A DNA stretch of 58,347 nucleotides, from NCBI GenBank assembly GCA_963754945.1, contig CAVWIG010000027.1:1-58347 (forward strand). The letters are read 5' to 3'. Every line of letters starts with the position of its first letter. The first letter of the stretch is position 1. This DNA comes from Methanotrichaceae archaeon (GTDB lineage: Archaea; Halobacteriota; Methanosarcinia; Methanotrichales; Methanotrichaceae). Made by a program: the position numbers and the translations under genes. The notes below the pieces were generated by a model. It made no database searches. It was not told where the DNA came from and was given only the letters and a program-made list of their open reading frames with translations. This document shows positions 2,334 to 34,825 of the stretch, piece by piece.

Positions 2334-2357
2334 CGCGTCTTAATTAATATCTAATTA

Positions 2358-4537: not shown

Positions 4538-4615
4538 ATAGACACCTAAAGCTAGTTCGTGCTTATTATCTTAAATAGCTACTGACAAAAGGCAGGGCAA
4601 ATAAGCCTAAGAGAT

Positions 4616-13977: not shown

Positions 13978-15388
13978 TGTCCTGGACCTCCGGTGTAGCA
14001 ATATTCGTCTCCGAATCTGGCTTGCTCATCCTATCGAACGGGCTTGACCTTCTAACTGGAAGTTCCCAGACAGGACTATTGATGGTCGTCTCCACCTCCC
14101 TGGCGAAGTTGATCATTCCGTTGTAGCCCTCGAAGGTCGTGGTTCTGTCGTGGTTGAAGTCGCAGAAGGCAATTCCCAGCTTGTATGCCAGGAACCTTTC
14201 CTTGACACCTGCCACCAGCAAGTCCGCCTTCTGGCTAACCAGCAGTTCGCAGAGCTCCAGGGGGTTGGCGTCATCGATGATGACAGTCCCGTCCTTGACG
14301 ATGTAGCTTATCTTCTCGTAGTCATCACGATCCCCGGTCTGAGTGCCGATGATCACCACTTCCATTCCCAGCTCCTGGAAGCCCTTGACAAGGGACACGG
14401 CCTTGGCTGCCCCGCCCATGTATATCGCAGCGCGTTTTCCTGCAACTCCTGCTCTGTACTGCTCAATCTGTCTTCTTGTCCTTCTTTCCTCTGTGCGGAT
14501 CATCTCCTCCGCCTTTTCCATCATGCCAGGCTCCCCAAAGAACTCGGCTGCAGTCCGGAGGGCAGAGGACATATCCTCTATGCCGAAGAAGCTGACACGC
14601 TTGTACGGTATGCCGTACTTCTCCTCCAGCTTCTTGGCGAGGTATGTCATGGAACCGCTGCACTGGACAAGGTTCAACCTGGCAGTGTGGGCCCTCTGTA
14701 TCTCCTCAACTCTGGAGTCGCCCGTAAGCGTTGCCACAACCTCGATGCCCATCTCCTCGAAGTAGGGCTTGATTGACCACAGGTCACCTGCCACGTTGTA
14801 CTCTCCGAGGAGGTTCAGGGTGTAAGGGCTCCTCGGTGTGTAATTCCTTGTCCCGATCAGCTCATAGAGAGCATTGCATGCGGCCTTGTAGCCCTCGTTC
14901 TTGTTGCCCCGAAACCCTTCGGACTTGACTGGTACCACAGGGATTCCAAGCTCCTGGGAAGCGGATTTGCAGACTGCTCGAAGGTCGTCGCCAATGACTC
15001 CAACGATGCATGTCGAGTAGACGAAGATGGCCGGAGGAGTGAACCTGATAGCCAGCTCGCGGATGGCGCTTGCCAGCTTCTTCTCTCCTCCGAAGATGAC
15101 GTCCATCTCCGACATGTCGGTGGAGAAGCTGCTCTTGTAAAGAGCGGGACCGCTTGTGCTGCTGCCGCGGATGTCCCAGGTATAGCTGGCGCATCCTATG
15201 GGCCCGTGGACAAGGTGCAGGGCGTCGGTTATTGGGTTTAATACAACCCTTGCTCCTGAGTAGACGCAGGCCCTCTGGCTGACAGCACCCGCAAGGCTCT
15301 CGTTGCTGCAGGCCAGAGGAAGGGAGGCTATGCCGCTCTTTTTCTGGATGTGGCTCTCCCGACCCTCAAAGACGCTTACTATGCCCAT
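13952..15388 (-). CDS. nifE: nitrogenase FeMo-cofactor scaffold NifE
   Basis: SQRACVYSGARVVL, HGPIGCA, VIFGGEKKL, STCIVGVIGDD, VQCSGS. Confidence 0.95.
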   Translation of the reverse strand: MGIVSVFEGRESHIQKKSGIASLPLACSNESLAGAVSQRACVYSGARVVLNPITDALHLVHGPIGCASYTWDIRGSSTSGPALYKSSFSTDMSEMDVIFGGEKKLASAIRELAIRFTPPAIFVYSTCIVGVIGDDLRAVCKSASQELGIPVVPVKSEGFRGNKNEGYKAACNALYELIGTRNYTPRSPYTLNLLGEYNVAGDLWSIKPYFEEMGIEVVATLTGDSRVEEIQRAHTARLNLVQCSGSMTYLAKKLEEKYGIPYKRVSFFGIEDMSSALRTAAEFFGEPGMMEKAEEMIRTEERRTRRQIEQYRAGVAGKRAAIYMGGAAKAVSLVKGFQELGMEVVIIGTQTGDRDDYEKISYIVKDGTVIIDDANPLELCELLVSQKADLLVAGVKERFLAYKLGIAFCDFNHDRTTTFEGYNGMINFAREVETTINSPVWELPVRRSSPFDRMSKPDSETNIATPEVQDNVRELCDC

Positions 15389-16747
15389 CTAGAGCACCAT
15401 CTCGAAGTGTGCGTCGTCCGCGTCCCTGTCCAGCCTCTCCAGGAAGGTGTTTCCTATCATCTCCACCAGCCTGGCAGCTCCTGCGTACCCTACGATGGGG
15501 AAGTAGTGCATGTTGGCCCTATCCGTGATAGGGAACCCTACGCGCACCAGAGGGATGTCCTCGGCCCTTGCGATCAGCTTGCCGAAGGAGTTGCCTATCA
15601 GCAGGTCCACCTTTCTGGACTTGATCTTCTGGTGGAGCAGGAACAGGTCTCCTACGATGGCCTCGCAGTCCGGGGCGATCTTGTGGACCTCTTCAGCAAA
15701 CAGCTTGTCGGGCGTGCCCGTAAGGGCATAGACTGGGTTCATCCCCATCTCAACCACCAAGCTGAGCATGCCCAGCACAGTATCGGGGTCACCGAATATG
15801 GCAACGCTCTTGGCGTGGAAGTGTGGATGGGCGTCAGTCATCATGTCCACTAGACGGCCGCGTTCGTCCTCGATCTCTTTGGGCACAGCAACCTCCATTA
15901 GCTTCGAGACGTTCATCACGAAGGTGTCGGTGTTTCTGATGCCTATGGGCATAGGTCCGATCACCGCAGGTATTCCGAACTTTCCTTTCAGGACGATAGC
16001 TCCCGATGCGCCTGCAGTCCTGCCCAAGGCCACGGTTCCTCGGGAGTTTCCCGCATCCACAAGGTCAGGGATGGTTGTGCCTCCTGGAGGGTACAGGCCG
16101 CCGGACTCCGGCGTAAGCGGAGCGTCGAAGACCCCCGTAGTGTCCGGGAAGACGATGTAAGGAATGCCCATCATGCCCAGGATCCTCTTGATCTCGCGGA
16201 TGTCTCCCGGGTCCACAAAACCTGGGATGATGTTCAGTTTTCCGTTGGGCTTGGTCTTCCTCGGGAATGACTGGGCCATGGCCTTCACTGCGTTGTCGTA
16301 GCCCGTTACGTGCGATCCCACGTAGCTTGGAGTGCTGGCTATGACCACCCGAACCTTGGGGTCGAAGAACTCCTCTTCCTTAATCTCCTCCATGAATGAG
16401 GAGACATCGTCGCCTATAGTCTCCGAGGAGCAGGTGGTGTGGATGGCCAGGACGTCGGGATGGTAGATGTTGACGATGTTGTCGACAGCCTCGCGCAGGT
16501 TGTTCCTGCCGCCGAAGACCACCGAGTCCTCGGTGAAGGAGCTGGTAGCGGCTATTGTCGGCTCCCTGTAGTGCCGGGCCAACATCATGCGCAGGTAGGA
16601 TGAGCAGCCCTGGGAGCCGTGGGTAAGGGGCATGCAGTTGTGAATGCCTTTGTAGGCGAGGATTGCCCCGATGGGCTGGCAGATCTTGGCCGGGTTTATG
16701 ACCAGATTCTCTCTTGCGGCTACATCTTTCGTTGTGTAATCAAGCAT
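15389..16747 (-). CDS. nifK: nitrogenase MoFe protein beta chain
   Basis: NPAKICQPIGA, HGSQGCSSY, TTCSSETIGDD, TPSYVGSH. Confidence 0.95.
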   Translation of the reverse strand: MLDYTTKDVAARENLVINPAKICQPIGAILAYKGIHNCMPLTHGSQGCSSYLRMMLARHYREPTIAATSSFTEDSVVFGGRNNLREAVDNIVNIYHPDVLAIHTTCSSETIGDDVSSFMEEIKEEEFFDPKVRVVIASTPSYVGSHVTGYDNAVKAMAQSFPRKTKPNGKLNIIPGFVDPGDIREIKRILGMMGIPYIVFPDTTGVFDAPLTPESGGLYPPGGTTIPDLVDAGNSRGTVALGRTAGASGAIVLKGKFGIPAVIGPMPIGIRNTDTFVMNVSKLMEVAVPKEIEDERGRLVDMMTDAHPHFHAKSVAIFGDPDTVLGMLSLVVEMGMNPVYALTGTPDKLFAEEVHKIAPDCEAIVGDLFLLHQKIKSRKVDLLIGNSFGKLIARAEDIPLVRVGFPITDRANMHYFPIVGYAGAARLVEMIGNTFLERLDRDADDAHFEMVL

Positions 16748-18356
16748 GTATCTCCTCCCTCCAGGGCGGAGTTATGAACTTCCAGGTTGGGCTGTTCACG
16801 GCCATGTCCATGTCTCTGGCAAAGTTGACGAAGCCCTCGAAGCCTGTGTACGGTCCGCTGTAGTCGTAGGAGTGCATCTGGCGCGAGGGGATGTGCATCT
16901 TCTGGAAGACGTACTTGTCCTTGACTCCTGAGCAGAAGATGTCTATCTTCAGCTCTTTGACCAGGTGCTCGCACTCCTGGTGGCTGTAGTCGTCGATCAT
17001 TACCTGGCCGTCTCTCATGTGGGGCAGAAGCCCTTCGTAGTCCATCAACCTCGGAATCGTTTCTTTCTTCTCCTGGATTGCAGAGTCGTCATAAGGCGAT
17101 TTTACGCTTGGGTCCCTTTCGTAGTGTATATCCGCCAGGACCTTCGACATTCCTGTGTGAACTATCTCCGGTATGACTTTGCGGCCTTCGTAGTCGTCTC
17201 TGTGGCCGAACTCGTACCCGGCAACGACAACGTCCATCCCCAGGGTCTCGAACATGTTCTTGACATGGTGGGCGCGAGAGCCTCCGACAAGGAGCATGAC
17301 CCTCTTTCCTGCCAGGCGCTTCCTGTACATGTCTACAATCGGATTGATCTTGGTCGTCTCCTCAGCGATCACCTGCTCTGTCTTTCTGGTGAGCTCGGGA
17401 TCGCCGAAGAACGCCGCCATGTCCCTGAGAGTTTTGACTGTATCCTCTACCCCCAGGTAGTTGACCTTCAACCACGGAATGCCATACTTCTCTTCCATCA
17501 TGCGGTTGGTGTAGTTGATGGACCGGTGACATAGGAGGATGTTCAGCTTGGCCCGATGCGCCTTGGCGATATCGTGGAAAGAGGCATCACCTGTGAAGGG
17601 GCTGACTATTCTGTAGCCTATCCTCTCCAGCAGCTCTTTGATTACCCAGTAGTCTCCACCGATGTTATACTCGCCGAAGACGTTGACGTCAAAGGGGCCT
17701 GGGTCCTCCAGCTCCTCAGTCCCCACAAGGTGCTCCATCAGAGCGTTGGAGGCAATGTGGTGGCCAGCCGACTGGCTGACGCCCCTGTAGCCCTCGCATC
17801 TCACAGGTATGACTTTTATCTTGAGGTCGTCCTCTGCCTTTCTGCAAACAGACTCTATGTCGTCGCCTATGAGACCTATTGGACAGGTGCAGAATACTGA
17901 GATGCACTCGGGCTTGAAGATGGAGTACGCCTCCCTGATGGACTTGGCCAGCTTCTTCTCAGCACCGAAGACTATGTCAGTCTCTTTTACGTCCGTGGAC
18001 AGGCAGTAGCTCGCGAAGTTGTCCTGGCCTTCCTCTGCCCTTGCCAGGTTCCTTCGCATTCCCCAGGTGAAGTAGGCGCATCCAATTGGACCGTGGGTTA
18101 TGTGGAGTATATCCTTGACGGGTCCGAAGACCACTCCCTTGGAGCCAGCATAGGCACAGCCGCGGTTGGTCAGAATCCCTGGGATTGTCCTCTGGTTGGC
18201 CTCGATCTTCTGCTCCACCTCGCAGGAGTCTTTCACCAGCACGTGCTTCTTGCGGATCTCGCCGGTCTTCTTGGGGAGCTCTTTCAGGATTCCGTTCACG
18301 ATCTTCTTGCTCTCCTCTACGCTGACCGGTTCCCTTTCGTTTGCGATTCCGCTCAT
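16740..18356 (-). CDS. nifD: nitrogenase MoFe protein alpha chain (group II-type internal insertion)
   Basis: RGCAYAG, GPIGCA, CTCPIG, SQSAGHH, FeMo-co ligands LLCHRS and RQMHSYD; insertion after GHRDDYEGR. Confidence 0.96.
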   Translation of the reverse strand: MSGIANEREPVSVEESKKIVNGILKELPKKTGEIRKKHVLVKDSCEVEQKIEANQRTIPGILTNRGCAYAGSKGVVFGPVKDILHITHGPIGCAYFTWGMRRNLARAEEGQDNFASYCLSTDVKETDIVFGAEKKLAKSIREAYSIFKPECISVFCTCPIGLIGDDIESVCRKAEDDLKIKVIPVRCEGYRGVSQSAGHHIASNALMEHLVGTEELEDPGPFDVNVFGEYNIGGDYWVIKELLERIGYRIVSPFTGDASFHDIAKAHRAKLNILLCHRSINYTNRMMEEKYGIPWLKVNYLGVEDTVKTLRDMAAFFGDPELTRKTEQVIAEETTKINPIVDMYRKRLAGKRVMLLVGGSRAHHVKNMFETLGMDVVVAGYEFGHRDDYEGRKVIPEIVHTGMSKVLADIHYERDPSVKSPYDDSAIQEKKETIPRLMDYEGLLPHMRDGQVMIDDYSHQECEHLVKELKIDIFCSGVKDKYVFQKMHIPSRQMHSYDYSGPYTGFEGFVNFARDMDMAVNSPTWKFITPPWREEIHA

Positions 18357-18709
18357 GAGATTGCCTCGTTTCCGCGTTCCCCAGTTCTTATTCTTACAGC
18401 CTCATCGATCGGGCAGACGAAGATCCGGCCGTCACCGATGTTGCCTGTCCTGTTCACCTTGGTGATCACGGCAACTACTGCTGGCACGAACTCGTCCTCG
18501 ACCATTATGGATATCATCCTCTTTGGAATGTACTTCATGCTCTTCTTTTCTGATTCTTCAAGCTCTGAGGGATGAGGGATCTGCAGCCCTCGCTGCTTGC
18601 CTCTTCCGAAGACCTTGTAGGCTGTGATGGATGGTATGCCGATCACGTCCAGAGCGTTTTTGGTTGTCTCCATCTTGTTCATCTGGATGATGGCCAGGAC
18701 TTCTTTCAT
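18353..18709 (-). CDS. nifI2: PII-family nitrogenase regulator NifI2
   Basis: MKEVLAII, GRGKQRG, TGNIGDGRIFV, RIRTGE; between nifI1 and nifD. Confidence 0.92.
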   Translation of the reverse strand: MKEVLAIIQMNKMETTKNALDVIGIPSITAYKVFGRGKQRGLQIPHPSELEESEKKSMKYIPKRMISIMVEDEFVPAVVAVITKVNRTGNIGDGRIFVCPIDEAVRIRTGERGNEAIS

Positions 18710-18710
18710 T

Positions 18711-19849
<1,139 letters not shown>

Positions 19850-19860
19850 CTATTTGGGAT

Positions 19861-19990
19861 AAAGCAGGTGCGCTGCTTTTTGGTCACGGGTCTCATCCTG
19901 TGCGCCGACCCCGAGTGAGTCGAGAGGTGCGCTGTCGATCTGCGGCCAGTTCATTCTTTTTTTGCACCTCTGGAACTGGACATTGCGGCC
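19861..19990 (-). promoter_or_regulatory. candidate structured 5' leader of the nif operon (four hairpins, repeated CGCAC loops)
   Basis: GC-rich island in AT-rich intergenic DNA; stems at 19861-19879, 19884-19918, 19920-19938, 19946-19979. Confidence 0.55.
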
Positions 19991-20015
19991 CCCTTATATT
20001 GAAGTATTTGAGGGG
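19990..20015. promoter_or_regulatory. imperfect palindrome, candidate nif operator
   Basis: CCCCTTATAT-N6-ATTTGAGGGG, ~20-45 nt downstream (minus sense) of a TTTATAAT TATA-like box at ~20034-20041; near-identical core at 24531 and 25548. Confidence 0.45.
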
Positions 20016-20117
20016 TATGAGTACAAATTGAGAATTATAAAGGATAGATTCTCAAAAAAGAAGTTACTTTCTCAAAAGATGATCGGTTTTCTGAAAAAAT
20101 AAGAAAATGACATAAGA

Positions 20118-20185
20118 TTAGAGAAGAACCAAAAAAAGAGTCTCGGGAATTGATGAAATTCAAGAAGTACCTTTAATAGTAGACC
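20118..20185. repeat. ~65-bp dispersed repeat, copy upstream of nifH
   Basis: GAGAAGAACCAAAAAAAGAGTCTC...GATGAAATTCAAGAAGTACCT...AGACC also at 24761-24830 and ~27056-27118. Confidence 0.85.
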
Positions 20186-20362
20186 GCATCACACTCATTT
20201 GGTTGGAGTTCCTCTATATCTGTTAAATCAACCAATCCTTCTTTTGGGATCGGCCTTGGGCTAACTTCATCATCATGTGCAAGTAAGATGGGAGGATATT
20301 TAAGATATCATATCTATGTCAAAAGGCGGATTAAGGCTGGGGACCTCTAAGGAAGGATAAAA

Positions 20363-20527
20363 ATGGATCTAAGTCAGACTTTGAATCTCATATTTCAATC
20401 AGCCCAAGCATCAATAACGTATATCGTATTTGGTGCATTTATTGCTGTATTACTCATAGGTATTTTAAGTATCATTAGGGATTGGTGGAATAGGAGAAAA
20501 GATAGAGAAGATGAAAGCGATAAATAA
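20363..20527 (+). CDS. small single-pass membrane protein (54 aa; not in ORF track)
   Basis: AGGAAGG RBS; MDLSQTLNLIFQSAQASITYIVFGAFIAVLLIGILSIIRDWWNRRKDREDESDK (TM helix then WW/RRK). Confidence 0.55.
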   Translation: MDLSQTLNLIFQSAQASITYIVFGAFIAVLLIGILSIIRDWWNRRKDREDESDK

Positions 20528-21034
20528 TTTGGAAGAAATAAGAACGATCATATGCCGCTAATAGTTACTTTTAGGGACACTGACATTTCGTTTCCGCCGT
20601 CTCACCGCCCCAGATAGCTAACACTACAACCACAATCACCCATGCGATCAACCCAACCAAACCGAACATCCCCATTAATAAGATGAGTGTAACACCCCTA
20701 ATATAAATAATATATGATAATATATGAATCGGGAGGCTTTTTCAACGTAGCTGGTCATTTCATCACTCCTATACCTGCTATCTGACCTGTTGTGGTATTA
20801 TTCAGGCATGTTTGTCTCTGAGGGTACTGCCCGTACCTCCCACAGCTTAGTCTATCTGACAAATAGACGCATAGCAGTGTGGTTCTGATATGACTGTGCC
20901 TCAATATAGTCTGGCTTGATCCCGCCATAAATTAACGGCGTGATAATCATAGTCACAATCAGAATTGCCTAGAAGAGGTAGAGTGCTGGATCAAATCGAA
21001 AAAGAAAAAGAGAGAAGAAAGGTGGCTGTTTGGG

Positions 21035-22818
<1,784 letters not shown>

Positions 22819-23058
22819 TCCAACCTCCTCGATAACTGATGAACGGTATCGCCTATCTATGCTATAAGAACTTTGTTAAAATAATCTCATAATCCTTATG
22901 AAAAGCCCTCAAATAATCATATCATATAAGAATTAATGGTTTAAATGCTACAAAATAGGTATTATAAACAACGAAAAAAGAAGCATAAGGCTCTTCAAAG
23001 GACGACAAACCTTTTCTATTACTGAACTAAGAGGGTGTCAAGCCACTGGAGAAGTAAA

Positions 23059-24450
23059 TCATCCCAAGGCCGAATCTGAATCTTTAGGACTTTCAGGATT
23101 ATCGAATTTACTCTCCTTTTTGACAGTAAGCTTTCTCGTAGATTTATTCATAGCCGCGTTTATCTCTCTGGCCAAATTTGTTATTCCGTTAAATCCTTCA
23201 AAAGCAAATGTTCGATGACAGCTAATATCACAGAATGGTATGCCTAGCTCTTGCGCTAGGAACTGTTCCTTTATCCCTCCAAGGAGCAGGTCCACCTTTC
23301 TCTTGACCAGCAGCTCTTCCAGATCGCAAGTATTCAGGTCGCTCTGGATGATCGCATTACAGCCAGCAGCATTGCAGATCTCTTGGCGATCTACCCAATC
23401 TCCTGGTAAACTGCTGACGAGTGCAGTCTCTATCCCTAGTTCCTGGAGTGCTTTAATTAAAGATGCGGCCTTTGAAGCCCCATTTACGTAGATCGCGGCC
23501 TTTTTTCCTGTTAGCTTTGCCCTGTGATGCTTTATCTGTCGCATGATTCTCTTTGTCTCTCTGGAGATCATCTTCTCGCACTCATCGATCATGCAGGGAT
23601 TATCGAAGAACTCGGCCGTATCTCTAAGAGCTGAAGACATCGCTCCAATGCCCAAAAAGCTCACACGCCGGTAAGGTATGCCGTACTTTTTTTTGAGTTC
23701 CATTGCCAGAATTATCATAGAACTGCTGCAATGAACCAGGTTGAGCCCAGCACGGTGAGCCCTTTGAATCTCCTTTACTCTCGAGTCGCCGGTCATTGTA
23801 GATACGACTTCGATCCCCATCTCCTCGAAGTAGGACCTAACTGGCCATAGACCTCCCGCGATGTTGTATACCCCAAGGATGTTTACTGCGTAAGGGCTCC
23901 TGGGCATGTATGTCTTGCTTCCTATCAGCTTCAACAGAGCATTGCATGCCAATTGATATCCCAATTCTTTATTTTTTGAAAAATTCCCCGAGCCTACGAT
24001 TACGACAGGAATCCTTAGCTCTTTGCCCGCAGTTTTGCATATTGCCTTGATGTTTTCGTCTATTTTTCCTATTACACAGGAGATATAGACGAAGATGGCT
24101 GCAGGCTTGTGAACTGCATAAAGCGTTCGTATGGTCTGGGCAAGTTTTCTCTCGCTATTTGAGATGTCATCGTGTTCGTCTATGTTCGTAGAGAACCTAT
24201 TTTTATAAAATGTACACCCGCTGGAGACACATCTGCGGGCGTCCCAGGAGAAGCTAGCACATCTAAGCGGTCCATGGATGAGGTGAATGGAATCAGATAT
24301 GGGGCTTAAAACAGATATCGCCTTTAAACAGGGGCACGCCTCTAGTGTCAGATCTCGCCCGGAAATGTCATCATCGCATGCTAGATGCATCGACTCATTC
24401 AATATCAGAATTCGTTCGCCTCCGACCTCAATTGACTTAGATGCAGTCAT
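23059..24450 (-). CDS. stand-alone divergent NifE paralogue
   Basis: Colinear with nifE (e.g. PRSPY..N.LG.YN.AG.LW....YFEEMGIEVV.T.TGDSRV.EIQRAH); open full length; start ATG 24450 chosen by alignment (ORF track gives 24492). Confidence 0.85.
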   Translation of the reverse strand: MTASKSIEVGGERILILNESMHLACDDDISGRDLTLEACPCLKAISVLSPISDSIHLIHGPLRCASFSWDARRCVSSGCTFYKNRFSTNIDEHDDISNSERKLAQTIRTLYAVHKPAAIFVYISCVIGKIDENIKAICKTAGKELRIPVVIVGSGNFSKNKELGYQLACNALLKLIGSKTYMPRSPYAVNILGVYNIAGGLWPVRSYFEEMGIEVVSTMTGDSRVKEIQRAHRAGLNLVHCSSSMIILAMELKKKYGIPYRRVSFLGIGAMSSALRDTAEFFDNPCMIDECEKMISRETKRIMRQIKHHRAKLTGKKAAIYVNGASKAASLIKALQELGIETALVSSLPGDWVDRQEICNAAGCNAIIQSDLNTCDLEELLVKRKVDLLLGGIKEQFLAQELGIPFCDISCHRTFAFEGFNGITNLAREINAAMNKSTRKLTVKKESKFDNPESPKDSDSALG

Positions 24451-24498
24451 GATCCTTTTCGATAATGCCTTAGTTCCAAACGTCGTTCCCAAACTTGC

Positions 24499-24849
24499 TA
24501 AACCATCATGAAAAGACTTTAATCCCTTGTCTTTATATTGAATTATTTGAGAAGCTTACACACAATATCCCAACATCGCAGAAAAATTATGCGTTTCGAG
24601 CGTGCATTATATTCGATTGCAATTTGTTCACCATATTGCTTCTGAACAGCAGATGCTATGCAGATCTGATGCTAAACTATTCCAGTTCAAACTTTCGATT
24701 TTAAGCCCAAATTGCAGTTCGCCTCATTCTCATTCCGGACTTCTTGTAAACGACACAATATTAGAGGAGAACCAAAAAAAGAGTCTCAGCGATCGATGAA
24801 ATTCAAGAAGTGCCTTTAGTTATGTAGACCTTTCAAAGATGGATCGGGC
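24499..24849. repeat. ~350-bp diverged direct repeat, copy A
   Basis: Aligns by eye with 25518-25575 plus 26855-27137 along its length. Confidence 0.9.
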
Positions 24850-25058
24850 TGTGTCGCTTGCAGGATTGAAGGGAGATGAGAATGCTCCTGGATAACTGGC
24901 CTGGGGCGTTGCTGGCAACAGTTGGCTAGTCCGCAATTTGAAATCGCACATTTCTTACAATCACTTATTTGTTCTTATCAGATCTCAAATAGACTAATTA
25001 ATCTCGATAATCTAAAACTGCAATACTCTAGTTAACACGAGCTATTTGAGGGAAAAAT

Positions 25059-25460
25059 ATGAGAAATTTGATAGTATTCGGTCTGATCCTTTCGTTATTG
25101 GCTTTGAACTGCGCGGCAATGGCACCAGTGCAGCTCACTGGAACTGGTGGTAAAGATATCTTGACACAAATAGCCAGCACGAAAATAACCACACAACCAA
25201 CCAATGCTTCATCGGCAGGTCTTTGGAGTTGGGGATCGGTTCCCTATGGGAATATAATCTCAAACGGCAAATTGGTATCGACAGGGGACGATGGTAGTAC
25301 TATATTGGTCTATCCAGCATTTCCAATAAACGATACTCCAATCTACAGGCTCTCAGATCCAATGACGTCTAAATATGTCGCAAGCGACCTTAATGACCCT
25401 GATTACAACCGGGACTCATGGGCCATGGCTCAAGCAACTAATCAGCCTGTGTTATACTGA
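25059..25460 (+). CDS. secreted hypothetical protein
   Basis: GAGG RBS, N-terminal signal peptide (MRNLIVFGLILSLLALNCAA), LWSWG motif. Confidence 0.7.
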   Translation: MRNLIVFGLILSLLALNCAAMAPVQLTGTGGKDILTQIASTKITTQPTNASSAGLWSWGSVPYGNIISNGKLVSTGDDGSTILVYPAFPINDTPIYRLSDPMTSKYVASDLNDPDYNRDSWAMAQATNQPVLY

Positions 25461-25575
25461 AGCCTTTCAAGCCTGGTTTTGCCCATTTATTTTTTATATG
25501 TTCTTCGCTTAAGACTGTAAACCATCATGAAAGCTTTAATCCCTTGTCTTTATATCGAATTATTTGAGAAGCTTA

Positions 25576-26846
25576 GGCAGTGTAACGATTTTTCTGTACT
25601 TTGATAATAAGAATGATTATCGGCCCTGTATCCTATCCAATCTTGAGAAAAGGAGGACACAGGACCATGATACCCATAGCACTCTTGGAAGATTACCTTA
25701 TCGATCAGGAAGATGGACTAAAGAAGCTTCTGACCTGGTTCTTGAACCTTGTAATGCAGCTAGAAGCGGCGCAACAGGCAGATGCAGAACCGTATCAGAG
25801 AGTCGAATCCCGAAAGGCACATAGGAATGGCTACAAGGAAAGATCTCTGAAGACGCGAGTTGGAGAGCTCCGACTCAAGAAACCTCAATTCCGTGAAATT
25901 TCCTTCGAAACCAAGGTGTTCGACAGATTTTCGCGCGTAGAGAAGGCTTTGGTCAACGCTGTACTCGAATCGTATCTCCAGGGGGTTTCAACCAGGAGAA
26001 TCCAAGATATTGTCTCTCGATTTGGCATCGAGAATTTATCTGCCTCTAGCGTTTCCAGGATATCCAAAGAGCTTGACGAGAAGGTAGAAGAATTCCTGAA
26101 GAAACCTATCGAACGTCCTATTCCTTATCTTTATGTAGATGCAAGCTACTTCAAAGTAAGAACAGAATCAAGATATGTTACCAAAGCTTTCATGATCGTC
26201 ACAGGTGTTAGAGATGACGGTTATCGCGAGATACTTGGCGCAAGAATAGCTGACAGTGAAGATGAACTCTTCTGGTCGGGATTATTTCAAGATCTGGCGG
26301 ATCGTGGGTTGTCCGGAGTAAAGCTCGTGATATCAGATGGTCATAAGGGAATCCAGAAAGCGGTTGAGAAATCATTTCTTGGTGCTTCATGGCAAATGTG
26401 TCACGTTCACTTTTCAAGAGCGGTCTTGAGAAACGTTGCCAAGAAGTATCATAAGGAGATCGCCGATAAGATCAAGATCGCTCTGGAAGACGAAATCAAG
26501 ATACAGGACTTAGCGAAAGAATTGAGGGAAAGAGGTTATGCGAAATCTGCTGACACTATCGACCGCTTCAGATTCAGTCTGTGGAATTACAGGGCATTCC
26601 CCAGAGGTCACTGGAGAAGGATTCGGACTACAAACGGGCTGGAGAGGATCAACAAGGAGCTGAAAAGAAGATCCAGGGTAGTCGGTGCCTTCCCAAGTGA
26701 GAGCTCGTTCATGAGGTTAGGGGTTTCGATCCTCATCGATATCAACGAAGAATGGCTGACCGCTAAAAAGTATTTATCTATGGATGCTGATTGAGTATGT
26801 TGGGATACAGGGCAACTCCAAATTACAGAAATCTCGGCACACTACC
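25576..26846 (+). mobile_element. complete IS256-family element (1271 bp)
   Basis: TIRs GGCAGTGTAACGATTTTTCTGTA / GGTAGTGTGCCGAGATTTCTGTA; 8-bp target duplication GAAGCTTA at 25568-25575 and 26847-26854. Confidence 0.95.
25667..26794 (+). CDS. IS256-family (Mutator-type) transposase
   Basis: RNGYKER, GVSTRRI, YVDA, VISDGHKG, WQMCHVHF, IRTTNGLERINKELKRR. Confidence 0.95.
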   Translation: MIPIALLEDYLIDQEDGLKKLLTWFLNLVMQLEAAQQADAEPYQRVESRKAHRNGYKERSLKTRVGELRLKKPQFREISFETKVFDRFSRVEKALVNAVLESYLQGVSTRRIQDIVSRFGIENLSASSVSRISKELDEKVEEFLKKPIERPIPYLYVDASYFKVRTESRYVTKAFMIVTGVRDDGYREILGARIADSEDELFWSGLFQDLADRGLSGVKLVISDGHKGIQKAVEKSFLGASWQMCHVHFSRAVLRNVAKKYHKEIADKIKIALEDEIKIQDLAKELRERGYAKSADTIDRFRFSLWNYRAFPRGHWRRIRTTNGLERINKELKRRSRVVGAFPSESSFMRLGVSILIDINEEWLTAKKYLSMDAD

Positions 26847-27121
26847 GAAGCTTACACACAATCTATCCCAACATCGCAGAAATATTATGTGTTCGAGCAT
26901 GCTTCGTCGAATTGCAATTTGCGCCGATATTGCTTCTAACAGCGGATGATATGTCCGATCTGGTGCTAAACTATTCCAGCTTAAACTTTCGATTTTGAGC
27001 CCAATTGCAGTCCGACTCATTCTCATTCCGGACTTCTTGTTAACGACACCGAAATGGAGAAGAACCCAAAAGAGTCTCAGCGACGGATGAAATTCAAGAA
27101 GTACCTAGGTAGCAGACCATT

Positions 27122-27931
27122 TCAAGATGGATCGGGCGGCCCAAAAGTATGACCCTGCTCTACCGTCATGTCTCGTTTGGGCATCGCTGGTCCGGCTACT
27201 CCGCTCATTATCTCTCCACCCAAAGGCTGACCATCGAGGAGAACTCTGTAATCCCCGAAGTATTTTCCACTTTTAATTAAAAGTGTGCCCTGGCTGACCA
27301 CCCTTTCATCCTTTCCGCTCAATGATACATTCAGGTGGCCGATTGTAGTTGTGGTGTTGTTCTGAGCAGATCCGAACTTTGGCAGAGAGACGTCGGCATC
27401 CAAAACCGTTTTGTTTCCTTTTGGTGACATCGATATGCTGTCCAGCCTATAGATGTCACTTCCGATCCTCAGAACTCCGCGGTGAATTACTTCGCCTTCA
27501 TCTTTCCTTATCTCATTCCTTATCTCCTCTAGAGTCAGGTTGGACGCCATCAGCTTCCTGATGCTCATGACTTCCACAGGCCTCGAGCTCTCGATGCTGA
27601 CCCTAATCGAGTGGGATTCATTGCCTTTCAGGGCAAATCCACGCCAGCTCTGGAAGCTCACACCGAGAGCGCCATCCATTCCCCTAAATGGCTCGGCTGA
27701 GGAGTTATTTTCAGCTTCCTCTACAGAGGCGGAACAAGGCCAGAATCCTTGCCCGCCCCCGGGCGAAAGTAGATACGCCCCATCAGTGCCCCCTGCCCAA
27801 CCCTCATGCATCAACTCTTTTAGGACGGCTTTCTCCTCCGCTGCCTCTGCATGCAGGCCAGAGCAGGCTACGTACAGGATCATGAGCGCCAGCGCCGTGA
27901 ACTCAAGGGAGAGAATGATAGGTCTTAGCAT
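27122..27931 (-). CDS. secreted hypothetical protein
   Basis: N-terminal hydrophobic signal; 269-aa ORF downstream of the membrane-anchored HTH gene. Confidence 0.7.
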   Translation of the reverse strand: MLRPIILSLEFTALALMILYVACSGLHAEAAEEKAVLKELMHEGWAGGTDGAYLLSPGGGQGFWPCSASVEEAENNSSAEPFRGMDGALGVSFQSWRGFALKGNESHSIRVSIESSRPVEVMSIRKLMASNLTLEEIRNEIRKDEGEVIHRGVLRIGSDIYRLDSISMSPKGNKTVLDADVSLPKFGSAQNNTTTTIGHLNVSLSGKDERVVSQGTLLIKSGKYFGDYRVLLDGQPLGGEIMSGVAGPAMPKRDMTVEQGHTFGPPDPS

Positions 27932-31186: not shown

Positions 31187-33256
31187 ATGGAAATGAAGTT
31201 CGTTCCCACCACCTGTCCGTACTGTGGAACAGGCTGCAGTTTTTATCTTGTTGTGAGGGATAACAAGGTGCTCGGGATAGAGCCGTGGCATACACCACCC
31301 ATAAATGAGGGTAAACTGTGCCAGAAGGGACGGTATGCCCACGAGTTCATCCACAGTAAGGACCGACTCACAAAGCCGCTGATAAAAAGGGACGGGATCT
31401 TCGTGCAGTCCTCCTGGGATGAGGCGTATTCGTTGATTGCGGAAAAATTCAGATCCTACAAGCCAGAGGAGTTCTGCTGCCTGGCTTCTGCCAAGGCCTC
31501 GAATGAAGACAACTACATCATGCAGAAGTTTGCCCGTGTGGTGCTGAAGACCAATAACATAGACCATTGTGCGAGGCTTTGCCACTCCTCTACGGTTTCA
31601 GCCCTTACCGAGGCGTTTGGCTCGGGAGCCATGACCAATTCAATACTGGATCTGCAGGAAGCTAGGTGCATACTCGCCATAGGAAGCAACACCTTTGAAC
31701 AGCATCCCCTGATAGCTAGGAGGCTTGTCCTGGCGAAGAAGAAGGGCGCGAAGATCATCTGTGCTGATCCGAGGTACACACCTACGGCGAAGCATGCAGA
31801 CCTCTACCTTTCCATGTACTCAGGAACAGATGTGACGTTGCTCAACGGTCTCATGCATCACATCATAGGGAACGGCTGGGAGGATAAGGACTTCATCGAA
31901 AAAAGAACGAGGAATTTTGATTCTGCAAAAGAGACGGTAATGAAGGACGACTACGATCTCAAGAACGTTTCAAGGATCACAGGCGTTCCTGAATCCGACC
32001 TGGCAACGGCTGCGGAATGGATCGCGAAATCCAAACCTTGTGCTCTAATCTATTCGATGGGAATAACACAGCACACCGTCGGTGTGGACAATGTGTTATC
32101 CGTGGCGAACCTGATGCTGCTGACGGGCAACATAGGAAAACCCGGCAGCGGAGTCAATCCCTTAAGAGGACAGAACAACGTCCAGGGTGCCAGCGATATG
32201 GGTGGTCTGCCGAATGTGTACAGCGGATACCAGAAGGTCACTGATGAAGAAGCCCGCAGCAGGATGATGAGTCTGTGGGGTGTGGAGGAGATCGCAGAGG
32301 GCAAGGATGGCCGCACATTAACGGAGATGATGGACGTCCTTGCAGATCAACCAGGCAGAATAAAATGCATGTACCTGCTCGGCGAGAACCCCATGATCTC
32401 AGACCCTGACCTCAACCACGTCAGAAAGGCAATGGAAAACATCGAGTTCATGGTATCCCAGGAGATCTTCCTTAGTGAGACCGCAGAGTTTGCGGATGTT
32501 GTCCTTCCTGCGGCCTGTTACGCCGAAAAGAATGGTACGCATACCAACACGGAGAGACGTGTGCAGAGGTGGAGAAAGGCAATCGATCCTCCGGGGGAGG
32601 CAAAGCCCGACTGGCTCATAATCTGCGAGATAGCAAGGAGGATGGGATACGAAAAACAGTTCCCCTATAAAACCGAAGAAGAGATATTCGACGAGATCGC
32701 AAAGGTCACGCCCACATATTCAGGCATGAACTACGAACGTCTAGAGCATCCTTACGCACTCCAATGGCCGTGTCCAGACACGAATCATCCAGGAACTCAA
32801 ATACTCTATACGGATAGATTCGCCACTGGTGATGGCCTAGGTGTCTTCTCGACTGTGGAGTGGAGACCTACCGCTGAGATCACGGATTACGCGTATCCTC
32901 TTATCCTCACCACTGGCAGGAGCATCTGGCATTGGCACACAGGTACAATGACCCGCAGATCCCCCACGCTTGACAACGAAGTAAAGACGGGCTGGGTGGA
33001 GATCCACCCAGAGGATGCTGAGAGGCTTGGCATAGACGACGGCGAGATGGTCAGGGTAACATCGCGCAGGGGTGAGATCGAAATTCAAGCGTTGGTGACT
33101 GAGGACATCAAAGTGGGAGAAGTCTTCATACCGTTCCACTTCAAGGAGTGTCCTGCCAACATCCTGACCAACAATGCAGTCGACAGCATCTCAAGGATTC
33201 CTGAATATAAGGCGTGCGCAGTAAAGATTGAAAAGATAAAGGGGCGAACGGGATGA
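31187..33256 (+). CDS. fdhA: formate dehydrogenase alpha subunit (Mo/W-bisMGD, Cys-type)
   Basis: CPYCGTGC..LCQKG Fe-S motif, DHCARLCHS, PLRGQNNVQGA, TNTERRVQ. Confidence 0.93.
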   Translation: MEMKFVPTTCPYCGTGCSFYLVVRDNKVLGIEPWHTPPINEGKLCQKGRYAHEFIHSKDRLTKPLIKRDGIFVQSSWDEAYSLIAEKFRSYKPEEFCCLASAKASNEDNYIMQKFARVVLKTNNIDHCARLCHSSTVSALTEAFGSGAMTNSILDLQEARCILAIGSNTFEQHPLIARRLVLAKKKGAKIICADPRYTPTAKHADLYLSMYSGTDVTLLNGLMHHIIGNGWEDKDFIEKRTRNFDSAKETVMKDDYDLKNVSRITGVPESDLATAAEWIAKSKPCALIYSMGITQHTVGVDNVLSVANLMLLTGNIGKPGSGVNPLRGQNNVQGASDMGGLPNVYSGYQKVTDEEARSRMMSLWGVEEIAEGKDGRTLTEMMDVLADQPGRIKCMYLLGENPMISDPDLNHVRKAMENIEFMVSQEIFLSETAEFADVVLPAACYAEKNGTHTNTERRVQRWRKAIDPPGEAKPDWLIICEIARRMGYEKQFPYKTEEEIFDEIAKVTPTYSGMNYERLEHPYALQWPCPDTNHPGTQILYTDRFATGDGLGVFSTVEWRPTAEITDYAYPLILTTGRSIWHWHTGTMTRRSPTLDNEVKTGWVEIHPEDAERLGIDDGEMVRVTSRRGEIEIQALVTEDIKVGEVFIPFHFKECPANILTNNAVDSISRIPEYKACAVKIEKIKGRTG

Positions 33257-34427
33257 GCGCGAAGGGCGATCTGATGTTGGCCTGGGCCGTCGATCCTCTG
33301 ATAAGAGAAAGAGGCGAATCGGGAGGAGCAGTCACAGCTCTCTTGACGTTTGCACTTGCGGAAGGCATTGTAGATGCTGTGGTCGGGGTTAAGAAAGGCG
33401 CGGACATTTACGATGCCAGGCCAGTCCTCATAACCGATCCTCACGAGGTTATGGACACGGCAGGTTCTATCCTCGGGAGCACGCTTCTGCTCTCCAAGCT
33501 TTTTGGGAAATACCTGAAGGGCTTGAAAGATTTAAAAGTAGCAGCTGCCCTCAAAGGATGCGATGTGATGGGGGTCTACGAACAGGCGAAGAGAAAGCAG
33601 CTAAATCTGGAAAATATTTTGATGATCGGCCTGAACTGTGGTGGTGCCACAACTCCAGCCACTATGAGGCGTATAATGTCCGAGGTTTTCGAGGTGGATC
33701 CAGACTCTGTGATAAAAGAATCAATGTACAAGGGACATTTGCACATCAAATATGATGGCCAAGCGAAAGATGCCTCTATTCCCAAGCTTGAAGATGCCGG
33801 TTATGGCCGAAGAAGCAATTGCAGACGTTGTAAGATGAAGATTCCCCGGCAGGCTGATCTCGCCTGCGGACAATGGGGTGTTCGGGAAGAGATGGTGGGG
33901 AAGGCCACCTTCGTCGAAGTATGCAGCCCGCGTGGAGCCGAGCTGATCAATGGGGCTCTGGATGCTGGAGTAATTGGCACGGTTGTTGCAGATGCCTCGT
34001 GCATCAAGGCCCGCAAGAGAAGGGAGGAAGCGACATTGAACCTGGCCGACGAATGGCGCAAGAAGGATTTTGCGCCATTGAGCGGCAGCAGGGAACGCCT
34101 AAAAATGATGATCGAAGAGACCTCCAGGTGCATAAAATGCTATACCTGTGTAGAGGTATGTCCAGCCCTGTTCAACAGCGTCAGCCCTATAAAACCGCAT
34201 TTCCAGGTAAGGTTCCGCCGGAGTTTGCATTCCATCTGCTACGCTATGCCCATGTTGCCGATTCTTGCATAGACTGTGGACAGTGTGAGGAACTATGCCC
34301 CATGGATATTCCAAATGCGCTGTTCATGCATGCGATCGAAGCCGACCTTGAAGAGCTGTACGGTTATCATGCAGGTGAGGACATGTCGCTGCCCGCGATG
34401 GCAATCATGGATGAACCGGATGGTTAG
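33253..34427 (+). pseudogene. fdhB: F420-reducing formate dehydrogenase beta subunit (FrhB family), frameshifted near 34180
   Basis: GESGGAVT, KGCD, IGLNCGG, GRRSNCRRC, CIKCYTC in one frame; PGKVPPEFAFHL..HVADSCIDCGQCEELCP in another frame. Confidence 0.85.
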
Positions 34428-34497
34428 AGCATAGTTGGAGCATAATAGTGATAAGCGTATGAACAAATGACTTAAACTCTGCCGATTAACAGCATAT

Positions 34498-34555
34498 GGC
34501 GCGATGATGACAAGGCCTGTCTGATCCGTGATGAGGATATTGAGTTCTGAGCGCC
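34498..34555 (+). ncRNA. archaeal C/D-box sRNA (2'-O-methylation guide)
   Basis: GGCGC stem, C ATGATGA (34504-10), 10-nt guide, D' CTGA, C' GTGATGA, 12-nt guide, D CTGA (34547-50), GCGCC; TTAAA box ~25 nt upstream. Confidence 0.9.
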
Positions 34556-34825
34556 GTTGTTCATTCGGTCACCTCATCAGATCAACATCTATTGCCATCG
34601 AGATATATGGAACCGAACCTGAACTCATTAAGTCGGTACGGTATTAAGTCATGCGAGTTTTGTCAAGCTCATCAAACTTACTTATCCTAAAATTCTTCCG
34701 CTGGTAGAGCACCCTGGGTAAAATGGCTTTCCGGCTTTGGAGAAGCTGTAAAAAAGAAAAGAGGTTCTTGCGAACCTAAATCATCCGGAGTGAAAAATGG
34801 TATTCTGAGAGATATCCTCTCTAAC

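Follow-up and report, generated by a model that had tools for sequence, protein, structure and literature searches.

The DNA analysed here, a stretch of 58,347 nucleotides from a Methanotrichaceae archaeon (contig CAVWIG010000027.1, assembly GCA_963754945.1; the window), encodes, besides the NifE of its nitrogenase operon, a second and strongly diverged NifE, designated NifE2, which belongs to a clade of its own, is maintained by purifying selection and has residues of its cofactor pocket replaced clade-wide. We put at about even the chances that NifE2 is a functional offshoot of the Methanotrichaceae NifE, which arose by duplication, is co-expressed with the nif genes and clamps an Fe-S cluster or the L-cluster. 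The literature searched on NifE in Methanothrix or Methanosaeta and on nifE paralogues in methanogens did not describe the NifE2 clade, nor is it mentioned in the accessible portions of PMC9012536, PMC8399215 and PMC13474568.

The nifE2 gene and the family assignment of its product

The open reading frame of nifE2 begins at a TTG codon (23059-24492, minus strand), and translation from the ATG at 24450, the Met of which is also the start in orthologues of 463-465 aa, gives 463 residues without the stop. A reading made previously from the letters of the DNA (the sequence-only reading) had taken the gene for a full-length, stop-free and more AT-rich paralogue colinear with the operon nifE, and the comparison agrees with this: NifE2 and NifE (13952-15388, minus strand) align colinearly with 224 of 441 positions identical (51%) and one gap (E 5e-161), while the GC content is 0.459 (GC3 0.49) in nifE2 versus 0.559 (GC3 0.71) in nifE. 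The GC3 of nifE2 is lower than that of the neighbouring genes in six genomes of six.

According to the Pfam search, PF00148 (Oxidored_nitro) is the only domain of NifE2, with 268.8 bits versus a gathering score of 28.6 and residues 39-434 covering positions 1-398 of the 399 in the profile; neither a DNA-binding nor a signalling domain was found by it. The NifE equivalog profile TIGR01283 (NCBIfam) gave 429.6 bits for NifE2, which is under the cut-off of 505.1, and 660.9 bits for the operon NifE, whereas with the NifD profile TIGR01282 the score of NifE2 was 252.9 bits, far under the cut-off of 653.55. NifE is the best family for the protein, and NifE chains are its closest solved relatives in sequence as well as in fold: the AF2 model (mean pLDDT 77.4, pTM 0.79) shares, as determined with Foldseek, the fold of NifE, the alpha-type subunit of the NifEN FeMo-cofactor maturase (3PDI, 9ONK, 9IAO, 9I0G), with TM 0.78-0.80. 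The database names of NifE2 relatives (NifE, 'nitrogenase component 1', protochlorophyllide reductase subunit B) are all mis-namings, and NifE2 so named can inflate nif gene counts in Methanothrix-rich metagenomes. Eight sequencing runs were matched to nifE2, all of DNA type and with small shares (0.04-0.11).

Table 1. Features of nifE2 and of its surroundings in the window (Av, A. vinelandii NifE numbering)
Feature	Position	Strand	Details
nifE2 coding sequence	23059-24450	-	463 aa, stop included in coordinates; PF00148 E 9.7e-80
Cys25, invariant N-terminal Cys	24376-24378	-	Cys in 7/7 group A, 14/14 group B, 38/38 NifE
Cys39-Pro-Cys41 (in TLEACPC)	24328-24336	-	Cys39 = Av Cys37, O-cluster ligand; Cys41 extra, group A only
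KAISVL for GARVVL	24307-24324	-	R to I and V to S in 21/21 NifE2 vs 38/38 NifE
Cys64	24259-24261	-	= Av Cys62, O-cluster ligand
DDISNSE for D-V/I-I/V-F-G-G-E (FGG motif)	24151-24171	-	both Gly gone in 21/21 NifE2
Cys125, then GKIDEN for GxIGDD	24052-24078 (GKIDEN 24052-24069)	-	Cys125 = Av Cys124; DD pair gone in 21/21
Cys241 and Ser243	23722-23730	-	Av Cys250 and Lys252 positions; by alignment
GDWVDRQ, clade signature, for GDRDDYE	23383-23403	-	by alignment
FCDISCHR	23212-23235	-	Ser410, Cys411, His412 align with Av Asn418, Gln419, Glu420
Promoter-like motif CTCAAATAATTCAATATAA	24533-24551	-	83-101 nt 5' of nifE2 ATG
83-nt upstream element	24748-24830	-	84-87% identity to nifH upstream region 20105-20185
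Second copy of nifE2 upstream region	25518-27137	+	split by IS256-family element 25576-26846, 8-bp overlap
amtB (21370-22818) and glnK (21035-21373)	21035-22818	-	conserved neighbours, own promoter
nifH-I1-I2-D-K-E-N operon	12676-20012	-	promoter motif at 19994-20012

Phylogeny, distribution and selection

A tree of NifE and NifD, suggested in the sequence-only reading as a check of the kinship, was built from 59 rows hand-picked from 126, with NifD as the outgroup. The relatives of NifE2 formed one clade in it (23 rows, SH-aLRT 100, stem 0.49), which is nested, with a support of 91, in the 41-row set of Methanotrichaceae-type NifE and does not group with NifD. Carriers of the clade make up 8 of the 105 Methanotrichaceae genomes and belong to three genera; the NifE2 signature pattern was found in none of 287 genomes of sister families, and a metagenome scan yielded one further close relative only (L049). 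At the DNA level the pattern GDW[VI]DRQ was found, within the class, in Methanotrichaceae alone, where 5 of its 12 matches are not nifE2: the matches in G082 and G052 displayed no NifE similarity, and those in G067, G050 and G041 are the same 21-mer as that of G052. The gene is missing from G003, a 99% complete genome of the same genus as the window genome, and the copy in G048 is interrupted by an insertion sequence (IS), being the sole such copy seen. Considering the patchy spread, the IS-cut copy and the genome of the same genus that lacks the gene, nifE2 is to be regarded as dispensable.

Open frames of 445-465 aa are kept in the three genera over about 45% protein divergence. The dN/dS values of nifE2 in close pairs (calculated by NG86) were 0.182 (window-G018), 0.180 (window-L049) and 0.197 (G018-L049), those of nifH, nifI1, nifI2 and nifD between the window and G018 were 0.053-0.066, and that of nifE between the window and G003 was 0.093. 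Distant pairs, in which dS is saturated, gave 0.12-0.26 for nifE2, 0.05-0.08 for amtB, 0.05-0.14 for nifE and 0.08-0.20 for nifN. The sequence-only reading had left the choice between a neofunctionalised protein with its cluster ligands kept and a slowly decaying duplicate, for which an absence of orthologues or a dN/dS near 1 would have spoken; orthologues in three genera and a dN/dS of 0.18-0.20 in close pairs argue for the former. Hence, nifE2 is under purifying selection and is kept in a minority of species. Its dN/dS, about twice that of nifE, together with the low GC3 would be consistent with weak expression or relaxed constraint.

Cysteines, motifs and pocket residues

Residues were compared between 21 NifE2 sequences (7 of group A, including that of the window, and 14 of group B) and 38 NifE sequences. 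The eight cysteines universal in the 38 NifE are all kept in 7/7 members of group A and in 14/14 members of group B, save Cys125 (11/14), which is replaced by Ser in two of the remaining members and by Arg in one. The O-cluster triad of A. vinelandii NifE, Cys37, Cys62 and Cys124, corresponds to Cys39, Cys64 and Cys125 of NifE2 in the window, and the equivalents of Cys250 and Arg70 and the invariant N-terminal Cys are retained as well. This last residue, Cys25, presumably matches Cys25 of A. vinelandii NifE, the pairwise alignment stopping short of it; the latter is a surface ligand of the L-cluster, and Cys250 is the strong ligand of the inward L-cluster, as stated in excerpts of PMC13031127 (for Cys25 also of PMC13128457). 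All the strings quoted in the sequence-only reading were found in the protein, i.e., CPC in TLEACPC, HGPLRCA, ISCVIG, LVHCSS, DDISNSE, GKIDEN and GVYNIAGG.

Fixed differences between NifE2 and NifE that extend over the whole clade number 15, and four of them (at positions 45, 46, 71 and 243) lie at or beside A. vinelandii Ile44, Arg70 and Lys252, which line the inward L-cluster site (excerpts of PMC13031127 and PMC13128457). Ser46 of NifE2 aligns with Ile44, the counterpart of NifD Val70 (PMC13128457, in part). The extra Cys41 is present in 7/7 members of group A, with Tyr or Phe at this position in group B and NifE. At the positions aligned with the second apex of the pocket, Cys411 (A. vinelandii position 419) occurs in 7/7 members of group A within Ser-Cys-His, while group B has Cys at 410 (A. 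vinelandii position 418) in 14/14 members, reading Cys-His/Gln. NifE reads Asn-His at A. vinelandii positions 418-419 in 38/38 sequences, A. vinelandii itself reads Asn-Gln, and the position of Gln419 is that of NifD His442. The weak or mobile second ligand (Asn-Gln or Asn-His) of NifE is replaced in NifE2, the contrast between strong and weak ligands being taken from A. vinelandii and possibly smaller here, since all 38 NifE have His.

The FGG motif, which had been considered conserved in NifE, is indeed lost in all 21 NifE2, and in the 38 NifE its first Gly is present in 38 and its second in 37; the motif is not universal, however, as A. vinelandii NifE reads VIMGRAEKRL at this site and yet works with NifH, and the loss of docking-face motifs, which the compared NifE share with NifD, is, consequently, a weak criterion. 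An inability to dock NifH, as proposed in the sequence-only reading, would agree with both motifs being gone in 21/21 but does not follow from it.

Genomic context and upstream region

The description of nifE2 as an orphan gene was correct in that amtB-glnK follows 240 nt behind it in the same orientation and no nifN adjoins it at the locus (the operon nifN is 9 kb away), but it does not hold with respect to nifH, the start of which is 3.2 kb downstream of nifE2 in the same orientation and which nifE2 directly precedes in two related assemblies. In every locus with flanking sequence nifE2 adjoins one amtB-glnK pair or nifH. The amtB-glnK pair beside it is orthologous (86-92% aa identity) in four loci spanning genera, in which gene order and orientation vary. 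The amtB promoter is conserved and unlike that of nifE2, and in G018 and L049 amtB-glnK is deleted to a 217-bp fragment with nifE2 intact (omega about 0.2). The nif operon lies beside nifE2 in the window, G018, L049 and G001, and nifEN accompanies it in seven of the eight carrier genomes.

The window genome (87.7% complete) contains only six PF00148 genes, namely nifD, nifK, nifE, nifN, nifE2 and one weaker match, which we take to be a candidate of the CfbD type. No second NifN was seen in the genome, these six genes included, and no vnf or anf system was found in the window or among them; the genome also has a NifB and three genes of NifX-like proteins. Fused NifE2-NifN forms were absent among the 11 longer matches, all of which were at most 42% identical. 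Neither PF00148 nor the operon DNA of G015 revealed nifD, nifK, nifE or nifN in the carrier G026 (76% complete), and the sequences flanking the operon in G015 are found on separate contigs in G026, synteny thus being uninformative on the absence of nif genes there.

The promoter-like motif 5' of nifE2 has four sites in the 2.97-Mb genome (none for the reversed-pattern control) and stands upstream of nifH as well. It precedes nifE2 in 6/6 genomes and nifH in 4/4 genomes with the region available, in one of them with one mismatch. The motif was rejected as a nitrogen operator, for the acetyl-CoA synthetase gene in G015 is also preceded by it. The NrpR-type operator, the consensus of which we assume to be GGAAN6TTCC, has a single site in the window, at 5637 (chance expectation 1.37), and none near nif or nifE2. 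The 83-nt element similar to the nifH upstream region occurs also in G018 and L049, in which the nifE2 upstream region is single-copy and free of IS. A search against Rfam found nothing in 19000-27000 or L040. Four observations go beyond the sequence-only reading: the pocket rebuilt across the clade, the new Cys, the nifH-type promoter motif and the conserved synteny.

Possible function of NifE2

From the NifE of the maturase NifE2 differs in its score below the family cut-off, in the lack of an adjacent nifN and of FGG and IGDD, in a pocket replaced clade-wide at A. vinelandii positions 43, 44, 69, 252, 356, 357, 418 and 419, in the extra Cys and in its own promoter outside the operon. Transcription from this nifH-type promoter would mean that NifE2 is made together with nitrogenase. 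The protein would still build the interface [4Fe-4S] O-cluster on its three kept Cys ligands, near which each subgroup has acquired a fourth Cys, at a distance of two or three residues from one of these ligands, and the 8Fe precursor (NifB-co, L-cluster) would still be taken up via the conserved N-terminal Cys. In the pocket, the precursor would meet Cys241, a rebuilt lining and, at the second apex, a newly acquired pair of Cys and His, owing to which it may be clamped rather than relayed. The face at which the Fe protein docks has lost FGG and IGDD, so that NifH-driven insertion of Mo and homocitrate would probably be lost too. NifE2 could therefore keep an all-iron cluster permanently in place, serving as a precursor reservoir or buffer or as a redox module and working with the operon NifN or alone.

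The available text of PMC13031127 relates that the L-cluster of NifEN stays mobile for want of a second strong ligand, whereas in NifD (the MoFe protein alpha subunit) and MarD-type methylthio-alkane reductase subunits strong Cys and His ligands fix the large cluster from either end, so that it stays put. The inward cluster of canonical NifE, of whose two ligands Cys250 is strong and the other weak, can leave, and structures published in 2026 have led to the argument that NifEN is able to relay the precursor because the inner site has a single strong ligand. NifE2 resembles NifD and MarD in that the second apex is furnished with a strong residue, Cys next to His, but the second ligand would be a Cys in place of their His, and neither a cognate beta subunit nor a dedicated reductase gene lies near nifE2; moreover, it scores far under the NifD cut-off and branches inside NifE. 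Diazotrophs with NifE and without NifN exist (Chem Rev 2026, PMC13474568, in part), and NifE2, a protein of NifE type, likewise has no NifN gene dedicated to it. The lone NifE is, however, the sole maturase candidate in those organisms, while NifE2 is a diverged extra copy accompanied by complete nifEN in most carriers.

A small but real chance may be given to NifE2 being an alternative maturase subunit, which would form a second E2N2 assembly with the operon NifN and mature the nitrogenase cofactor under particular conditions (other metal supply or carrier). Retention of the O-cluster triad, Cys241 and the N-terminal Cys, the nifH-type promoter motif, the co-occurrence with nifEN and the adjacent nif operon in four loci all agree with it. 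The predicted fold of NifE2 with NifN also weakly suggests such pairing (ipSAE 0.39, best of three controls 0.01; contact agreement between runs at least 49%, partner pLDDT at least 83). The ipSAE mark applied is attained in 116 of 157 solved complexes against 2 of 215 mismatched pairs, and only 18 of these solved complexes, together with both passing mismatches, score 0.60 or less; since NifEN structures are already solved, the score may reflect likeness to them and not binding. The same fold would also be compatible with a decoy competing for NifN, as considered in the sequence-only reading. The docking-face motifs gone and the pocket lining replaced in all 21 NifE2, the carrier G026 with no nifD, nifK, nifE or nifN found (76% complete) and the absence of vnf and anf from the window and the six PF00148 genes speak against a maturase, and the extra Cys by an O-cluster ligand could stand in for the contribution of NifN.

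The idea of clamping can be carried further, to a version that we consider rather unlikely: NifE2 as a former maturase, and a hitherto unrecognised L-cluster protein, that permanently holds an all-iron 8Fe carbide cluster between two thiolates. NifH would not be needed for this, nor perhaps NifN, with a homomer supplying the fourth Cys of the [4Fe-4S] site itself, and the protein would provide Methanothrix relatives under nitrogen stress with a new low-potential module for redox or catalytic work. The genome G026 would fit this version, as nifE2 is kept and no nifHDKEN was found in this 76% complete genome.

It seems improbable that NifE2 is a regulator or sensor of Fe-S, precursor or redox status for GlnK/AmtB or NifI1I2, or a decoy for a nitrogenase-binding regulator. 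Such a role would be in line with the lasting adjacency to an orthologous amtB-glnK pair despite changes of order and orientation, as well as the surface altered at the partner docking site; but gene adjacency by itself is weak evidence, amtB has its own conserved promoter unlike that of nifE2, nifE2 remains intact where only the 217-bp remnant of amtB-glnK is left, and the protein shows PF00148 matches only, with no DNA-binding or signalling domain. It is quite improbable that NifE2 is a functionless duplicate in slow decay, for, although the patchy distribution, the IS-cut copy in G048, the IS and local duplication just upstream of nifE2 in the window, the GC3 under that of the neighbours, the elevated dN/dS and the score below the NifE cut-off would suit it, the frames stay open in three genera, dN/dS is well under 1 even in distant pairs, the promoter motif is conserved in 6/6 genomes, and 15 clade-fixed new residues with subgroup-conserved new Cys are not a pattern of decay.

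Returning to NifE2 as a functional, cluster-clamping offshoot of NifE, the protein is a natural variant in which the second position is now Cys or Cys-His and the pocket has a new lining; its Fe-protein face and its link to NifN have altered alongside. It thus opens the clamp-versus-relay idea to a direct test on a protein provided by nature. Should the cluster remain bound, NifE2 would be added to the few proteins with L-type clusters outside nitrogenase assembly, together with methylthio-alkane reductase and the MCR activation complex.

The nifE2 gene and its family assignment

Pfam family PF00148 covers NifE2, the product of the second nifE paralogue, from end to end (E 9.7e-80), and the top NCBIfam model is NifE with 429.6 bits, below the curated cut-off of 505.1; the operon NifE reaches 660.9 bits. 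NifE2 aligns colinearly with the operon NifE, with 224 of 441 residues identical and a single gap, and its gene is lower in GC than the neighbouring genes (GC 0.459, GC3 0.49 vs. 0.559 and 0.71 for nifE). Its start Met is shared by orthologues of 463–465 aa. A full-length, stop-free frame, colinear with operon nifE, more AT-rich and lying upstream of amtB-glnK, had been described in the sequence-only reading; all of this is borne out, and every motif string quoted there was located. The genes lie on one strand in the order nifE2, 240-nt gap, amtB, glnK, spacer, nif operon, PPOX-class gene, modABC.

Location of nifE2, its neighbours and related features (window positions unless a contig is named)
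Feature	Position	Strand	Remark
nifE2	23059–24450	-	463 aa from ATG; in-frame TTG 14 codons upstream too
amtB	21370–22818	-	downstream of nifE2 after 240 nt
glnK	21035–21373	-	with amtB
Spacer glnK to nifH			1.2 kb, AT-rich
nifH-I1-I2-D-K-E-N	19840 down to 12676	-	
Operon nifE	13952–15388	-	
PPOX-class F420-dependent oxidoreductase	12297–12671	-	TIGR03666, 103.6 bits; right after nifN
modABC		-	beyond the PPOX-class gene
133-aa ORF	25059–25460	+	hydrophobic N-terminus, no Pfam match
Second leader copy, parts	25518–25575, 26847–27137		flank the IS256-family element
Intact motif of duplicated leader	25550–25568		faces ORF-poor 0.7-kb stretch
IS256/Mutator-family element	25576–26846		transposase ORF 25601–26794; splits second leader copy, 8-bp overlap
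Window end	56001–58347		sharp GC fall to 0.31–0.38; GC skew positive
217-bp amtB fragment	L027 (G018:C114) 3790–4004; L049 5208–5422		between nifE2 and nifH leader
Fourth CTCAAATAnnTCnnTATAA site	L040 (G000:C52) 1501–1519 = C52:13432–13450		
Truncated nifE2 homologue	L032 (G048:C1) about 9700–10552		
NifE match in 919-aa open frame	G097:C10:126890–128230		
4–5 more PF00148 genes	G015:C27 about 2271–4734, 31960–34592		one with two in-frame TGA codons

The PPOX-class gene also follows nifN in genomes G038 and G003; in Methanosarcina operons this place is occupied by nifX. NifB and three NifX-like genes are located elsewhere in the window's genome.

Phylogeny and distribution

Protein search returned two subgroups, group A, 80–89% identical to the window NifE2 (matches P0001–P0007), and group B, 50–57% identical (P0008–P0015, P0018, P0028, P0056), with ordinary NifE ranking next. 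In a tree of 59 rows chosen from 126, with NifD as outgroup, both groups are united with P0070 and P0018 in a single clade (SH-aLRT 100, stem 0.49), which is nested with support 91 in a 41-row Methanotrichaceae-type NifE set, in which the tree fixes no exact sister; a phylogeny had been proposed earlier as a check, and this one places NifE2 inside NifE. Database names of clade members vary (NifE, "nitrogenase component 1", protochlorophyllide reductase subunit B), and searches of the literature on NifE, including methanogen paralogues, yielded no description of the clade.

The family's 105 species genomes were all searched with a group B query, which revealed a NifE-like gene in 50 and the NifE2 type in eight, belonging to genera g1 (the window's genome G000 and G018), g15 (G026, G015) and g2 (4 of 59 genomes: G001, G038, G065, with a copy truncated by the contig end, and G048). 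No NifE2 was found in G003, a 99% complete genome of the window's genus. When the 392 genomes of the class were screened with a DNA pattern encoding GDW[VI]DRQ, a signature of the clade, 12 gave a match; all 12 belong to the family, and the 287 genomes of the seven other families gave none. Seven matches are nifE2 genes, and the two examined among the remaining five are unrelated. Metagenome contigs yielded one more close relative, L049. Within the family, G097 appears to have a fused NifEN, as its NifE match lies inside a 919-aa frame, and G015 carries additional PF00148 genes that are a separate nitrogenase-like system.

Cysteines and the cofactor pocket

Residues were compared in an alignment of 22 clade rows (P0070 excluded from the counts for group A, n = 7, and group B, n = 14) and 38 NifE, and equated with the A. 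vinelandii (Av) NifE chain, in native numbering, by phmmer alignment. Eight Cys are shared by every one of the 38 NifE (window positions 25, 39, 64, 125, 138, 169, 241, 407). All eight occur in the window copy and in 7/7 of group A, in agreement with the retention claimed earlier, and in 14/14 of group B, except Cys125 (11/14). Window Cys64, Arg72, Ser46, Cys125, Lys161, Cys241 and Ser243 correspond to Av Cys62, Arg70, Ile44, Cys124, Lys160, Cys250 and Lys252, and Ser410, Cys411 and His412 to Asn418, Gln419 and Glu420.

According to PMC13031127, Cys37, Cys62 and Cys124 of NifE ligate the O-cluster, while the inward L-cluster (the 8Fe FeMo-co precursor) is held by Cys250 and weakly by Gln419, at the site of NifD His442, close to Arg70, Lys252 and Lys357; its mobility is ascribed there to the missing second strong ligand. 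PMC13128457 describes Cys15 and Cys25 as a surface site and Ile44, Lys160 and Asn164 as cavity residues. Fifteen differences between NifE and NifE2 are fixed (R45I, V46S, I71A, K205R, G243S, M252L, F266L, P304R, G323N, Y355R, T366A, E376D, A386V, R396Q, V430I), four of which (45, 46, 71, 243) coincide with or adjoin these named pocket residues. At Av 418–419, Asn-His of NifE is replaced by Ser-Cys followed by His in group A (Cys in 7/7) and by Cys-His/Gln in group B (Cys in 14/14); at Av 356–357, Gln-Thr gives way to Leu-Ser/Pro and Arg-Asp/Asn/His, respectively. Each group has an additional Cys flanking one of the O-cluster ligands. In group A (7/7) the Cys37 site reads Cys-Pro-Cys; in group B (14/14) a three-residue insertion at the Cys62 site creates Cys-Ala-Thr-Cys. 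Further conserved Cys occupy positions 74, 286, 291, 359, 364 and 375 in group A and those of window 29 (12/14) and 154 (11/14) in group B.

The Fe-protein docking face

An aromatic-Gly-Gly motif (Phe in 31, Tyr in six, His in one; Gly in 38/38, then Gly in 37/38) and an invariant IGDD characterize the 38 NifE; none of the 21 clade members retains either Gly or the DD pair, so that the loss claimed for the window copy extends to the clade, and group B additionally lacks 11 residues ahead of the FGG position. Both motifs flank the Fe-protein docking site, where NifD Phe125 plays a role. A. vinelandii NifE itself has VIMGRAEKRL instead of FGG; consequently, loss of FGG alone does not prove that NifH docking is lost.

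Partner and structure

As stated in the sequence-only reading, no nifN was found beside nifE2. The window's genome (87.7% complete) holds six PF00148 genes, namely D, K, E, N, NifE2 and a weaker match presumably of CfbD type, and hence no second NifN. No fused NifE2 form occurred among 11 longer matches, all at most 42% identical, and no divergent NifN clade among the best 120 NifN relatives. G026 (76% complete) has two PF00148 matches only, NifE2 and a weaker one, which we assume to be of the CfbD kind; against its DNA the G015 nif operon matched nothing but nifE2, although at this completeness not found does not mean absent.

The AlphaFold2 model of NifE2 (mean pLDDT 77.4, pTM 0.79; weak at 1–37, 69–74 and 441–463) is nearest in fold to NifEN structures (Foldseek: 9i0f_A, 9ian, 9onk_A, 3pdi_A, 9i0g_A; TM 0.78–0.80), followed by NifD chains. 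Folding with the operon NifN gave an ipSAE of 0.39 (best of three controls 0.01; contact agreement at least 49%, partner pLDDT at least 83), which lends weak support to pairing: 116 of 157 solved complexes attain the mark, as against 2 of 215 mismatched pairs, and scores up to 0.60 comprise only 18 of those complexes and both passing mismatches. Since NifEN complexes are already solved, the score may reflect likeness only. A second maturase subunit paired with NifN is an unlikely, if the strongest, alternative.

Promoter motif and synteny

A motif of 19 nt, CTCAAATAnnTCnnTATAA, is located 83–101 nt before nifE2 and 154–172 nt before nifH. With up to one mismatch it has four sites in the 2.97-Mb genome (reversed-pattern control 0): nifH, nifE2, the IS-split duplicate leader and one on another contig, where about 900 nt without a sizeable same-strand ORF, then a VTT/DedA-domain gene, follow; no Rfam match was found at this last region, a candidate non-coding RNA. 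The core TTCTCAAATAnnTC precedes nifE2 in 6/6 genomes with an upstream region and nifH in G015 and G038 (one mismatch in G018; the window nifH site is CCTCAAATAC, C replacing the first T), and occurs 1–6 times per genome (controls 0). Because an acetyl-CoA synthetase gene of G015 has this core upstream as well, we read the core as a promoter type in shared use and not as an established nitrogen operator. In the window, G018 and L049, the leaders of nifH and nifE2 have an 83-nt element in common, situated farther upstream.

Across genera, the only neighbours that stay with nifE2 are those of a single orthologous amtB-glnK pair (86–92% identity). The gene precedes the pair in the window, G026 and G015 (nifE2-amtB-glnK) and follows it in G038 (amtB-glnK-nifE2); in G001 the arrangement is convergent, with the nif operon next. 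A regulator or sensor linked to GlnK/AmtB would be a reading of this neighbourhood, but we regard it as improbable: amtB has its own conserved promoter, unlike that of nifE2, and in G018 and the independent contig L049 the pair is shrunk to a 217-bp fragment, with nifE2 about 0.5 kb from nifH; the remnant, present in these two independent assemblies, shows that amtB-glnK were lost by deletion there.

Selection and insertion elements

By the Nei-Gojobori method, dN/dS of nifE2 was 0.182 (window-G018, dS 0.37), 0.180 (window-L049) and 0.197 (G018-L049, dS 0.03, few changes), that of nifH, nifI1, nifI2 and nifD 0.053–0.066 (window-G018) and that of nifE 0.093 (window-G003, dS 0.33). Distant pairs gave 0.12–0.26 for nifE2 (rough, dS mostly >1), 0.05–0.08 for amtB, 0.05–0.14 for nifE and 0.08–0.20 for nifN. 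The gene is under purifying selection, with constraint about twofold looser than on nifE. The G018 nif proteins are nearer to those of G001, from another genus (nifH 98%, nifK 97%, nifD 92% aa), than to those of the window, which suggests exchange of the nif operon between genera; such exchange would explain the lower dS of nifE2.

The nifE2 leader is locally duplicated upstream of the gene in the window, its second copy being split by the IS element; the relatives have a single copy without IS. The 133-aa ORF sits in the window-only segment between the two copies. In G048, complete in two contigs, nifE2 breaks off after about residue 290 and an IS256-like transposase frame follows, so this copy was disrupted by an IS. 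Apart from it, none of the signs named beforehand as speaking against a functional gene (no orthologues, dN/dS near 1, stops) was encountered. Conservation of the novel residues in two subgroups only about 56% identical indicates a changed function and not decay; a decaying duplicate is the least probable of the readings.

Proposed function of NifE2

The best-supported account, to which we give an even chance, is that NifE2 is a NifE offshoot, presumably co-expressed with nif, which would keep binding a [4Fe-4S] cluster at the interface as well as an L-type one and would no longer serve the NifH-driven maturation step. The L-type cluster would be clamped by Cys241 on one side and by the new Cys-His on the other. 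Any single physiological role is less probable than this general reading; NifE2 may act as an accessory holder or buffer of the precursor, or as a redox module.
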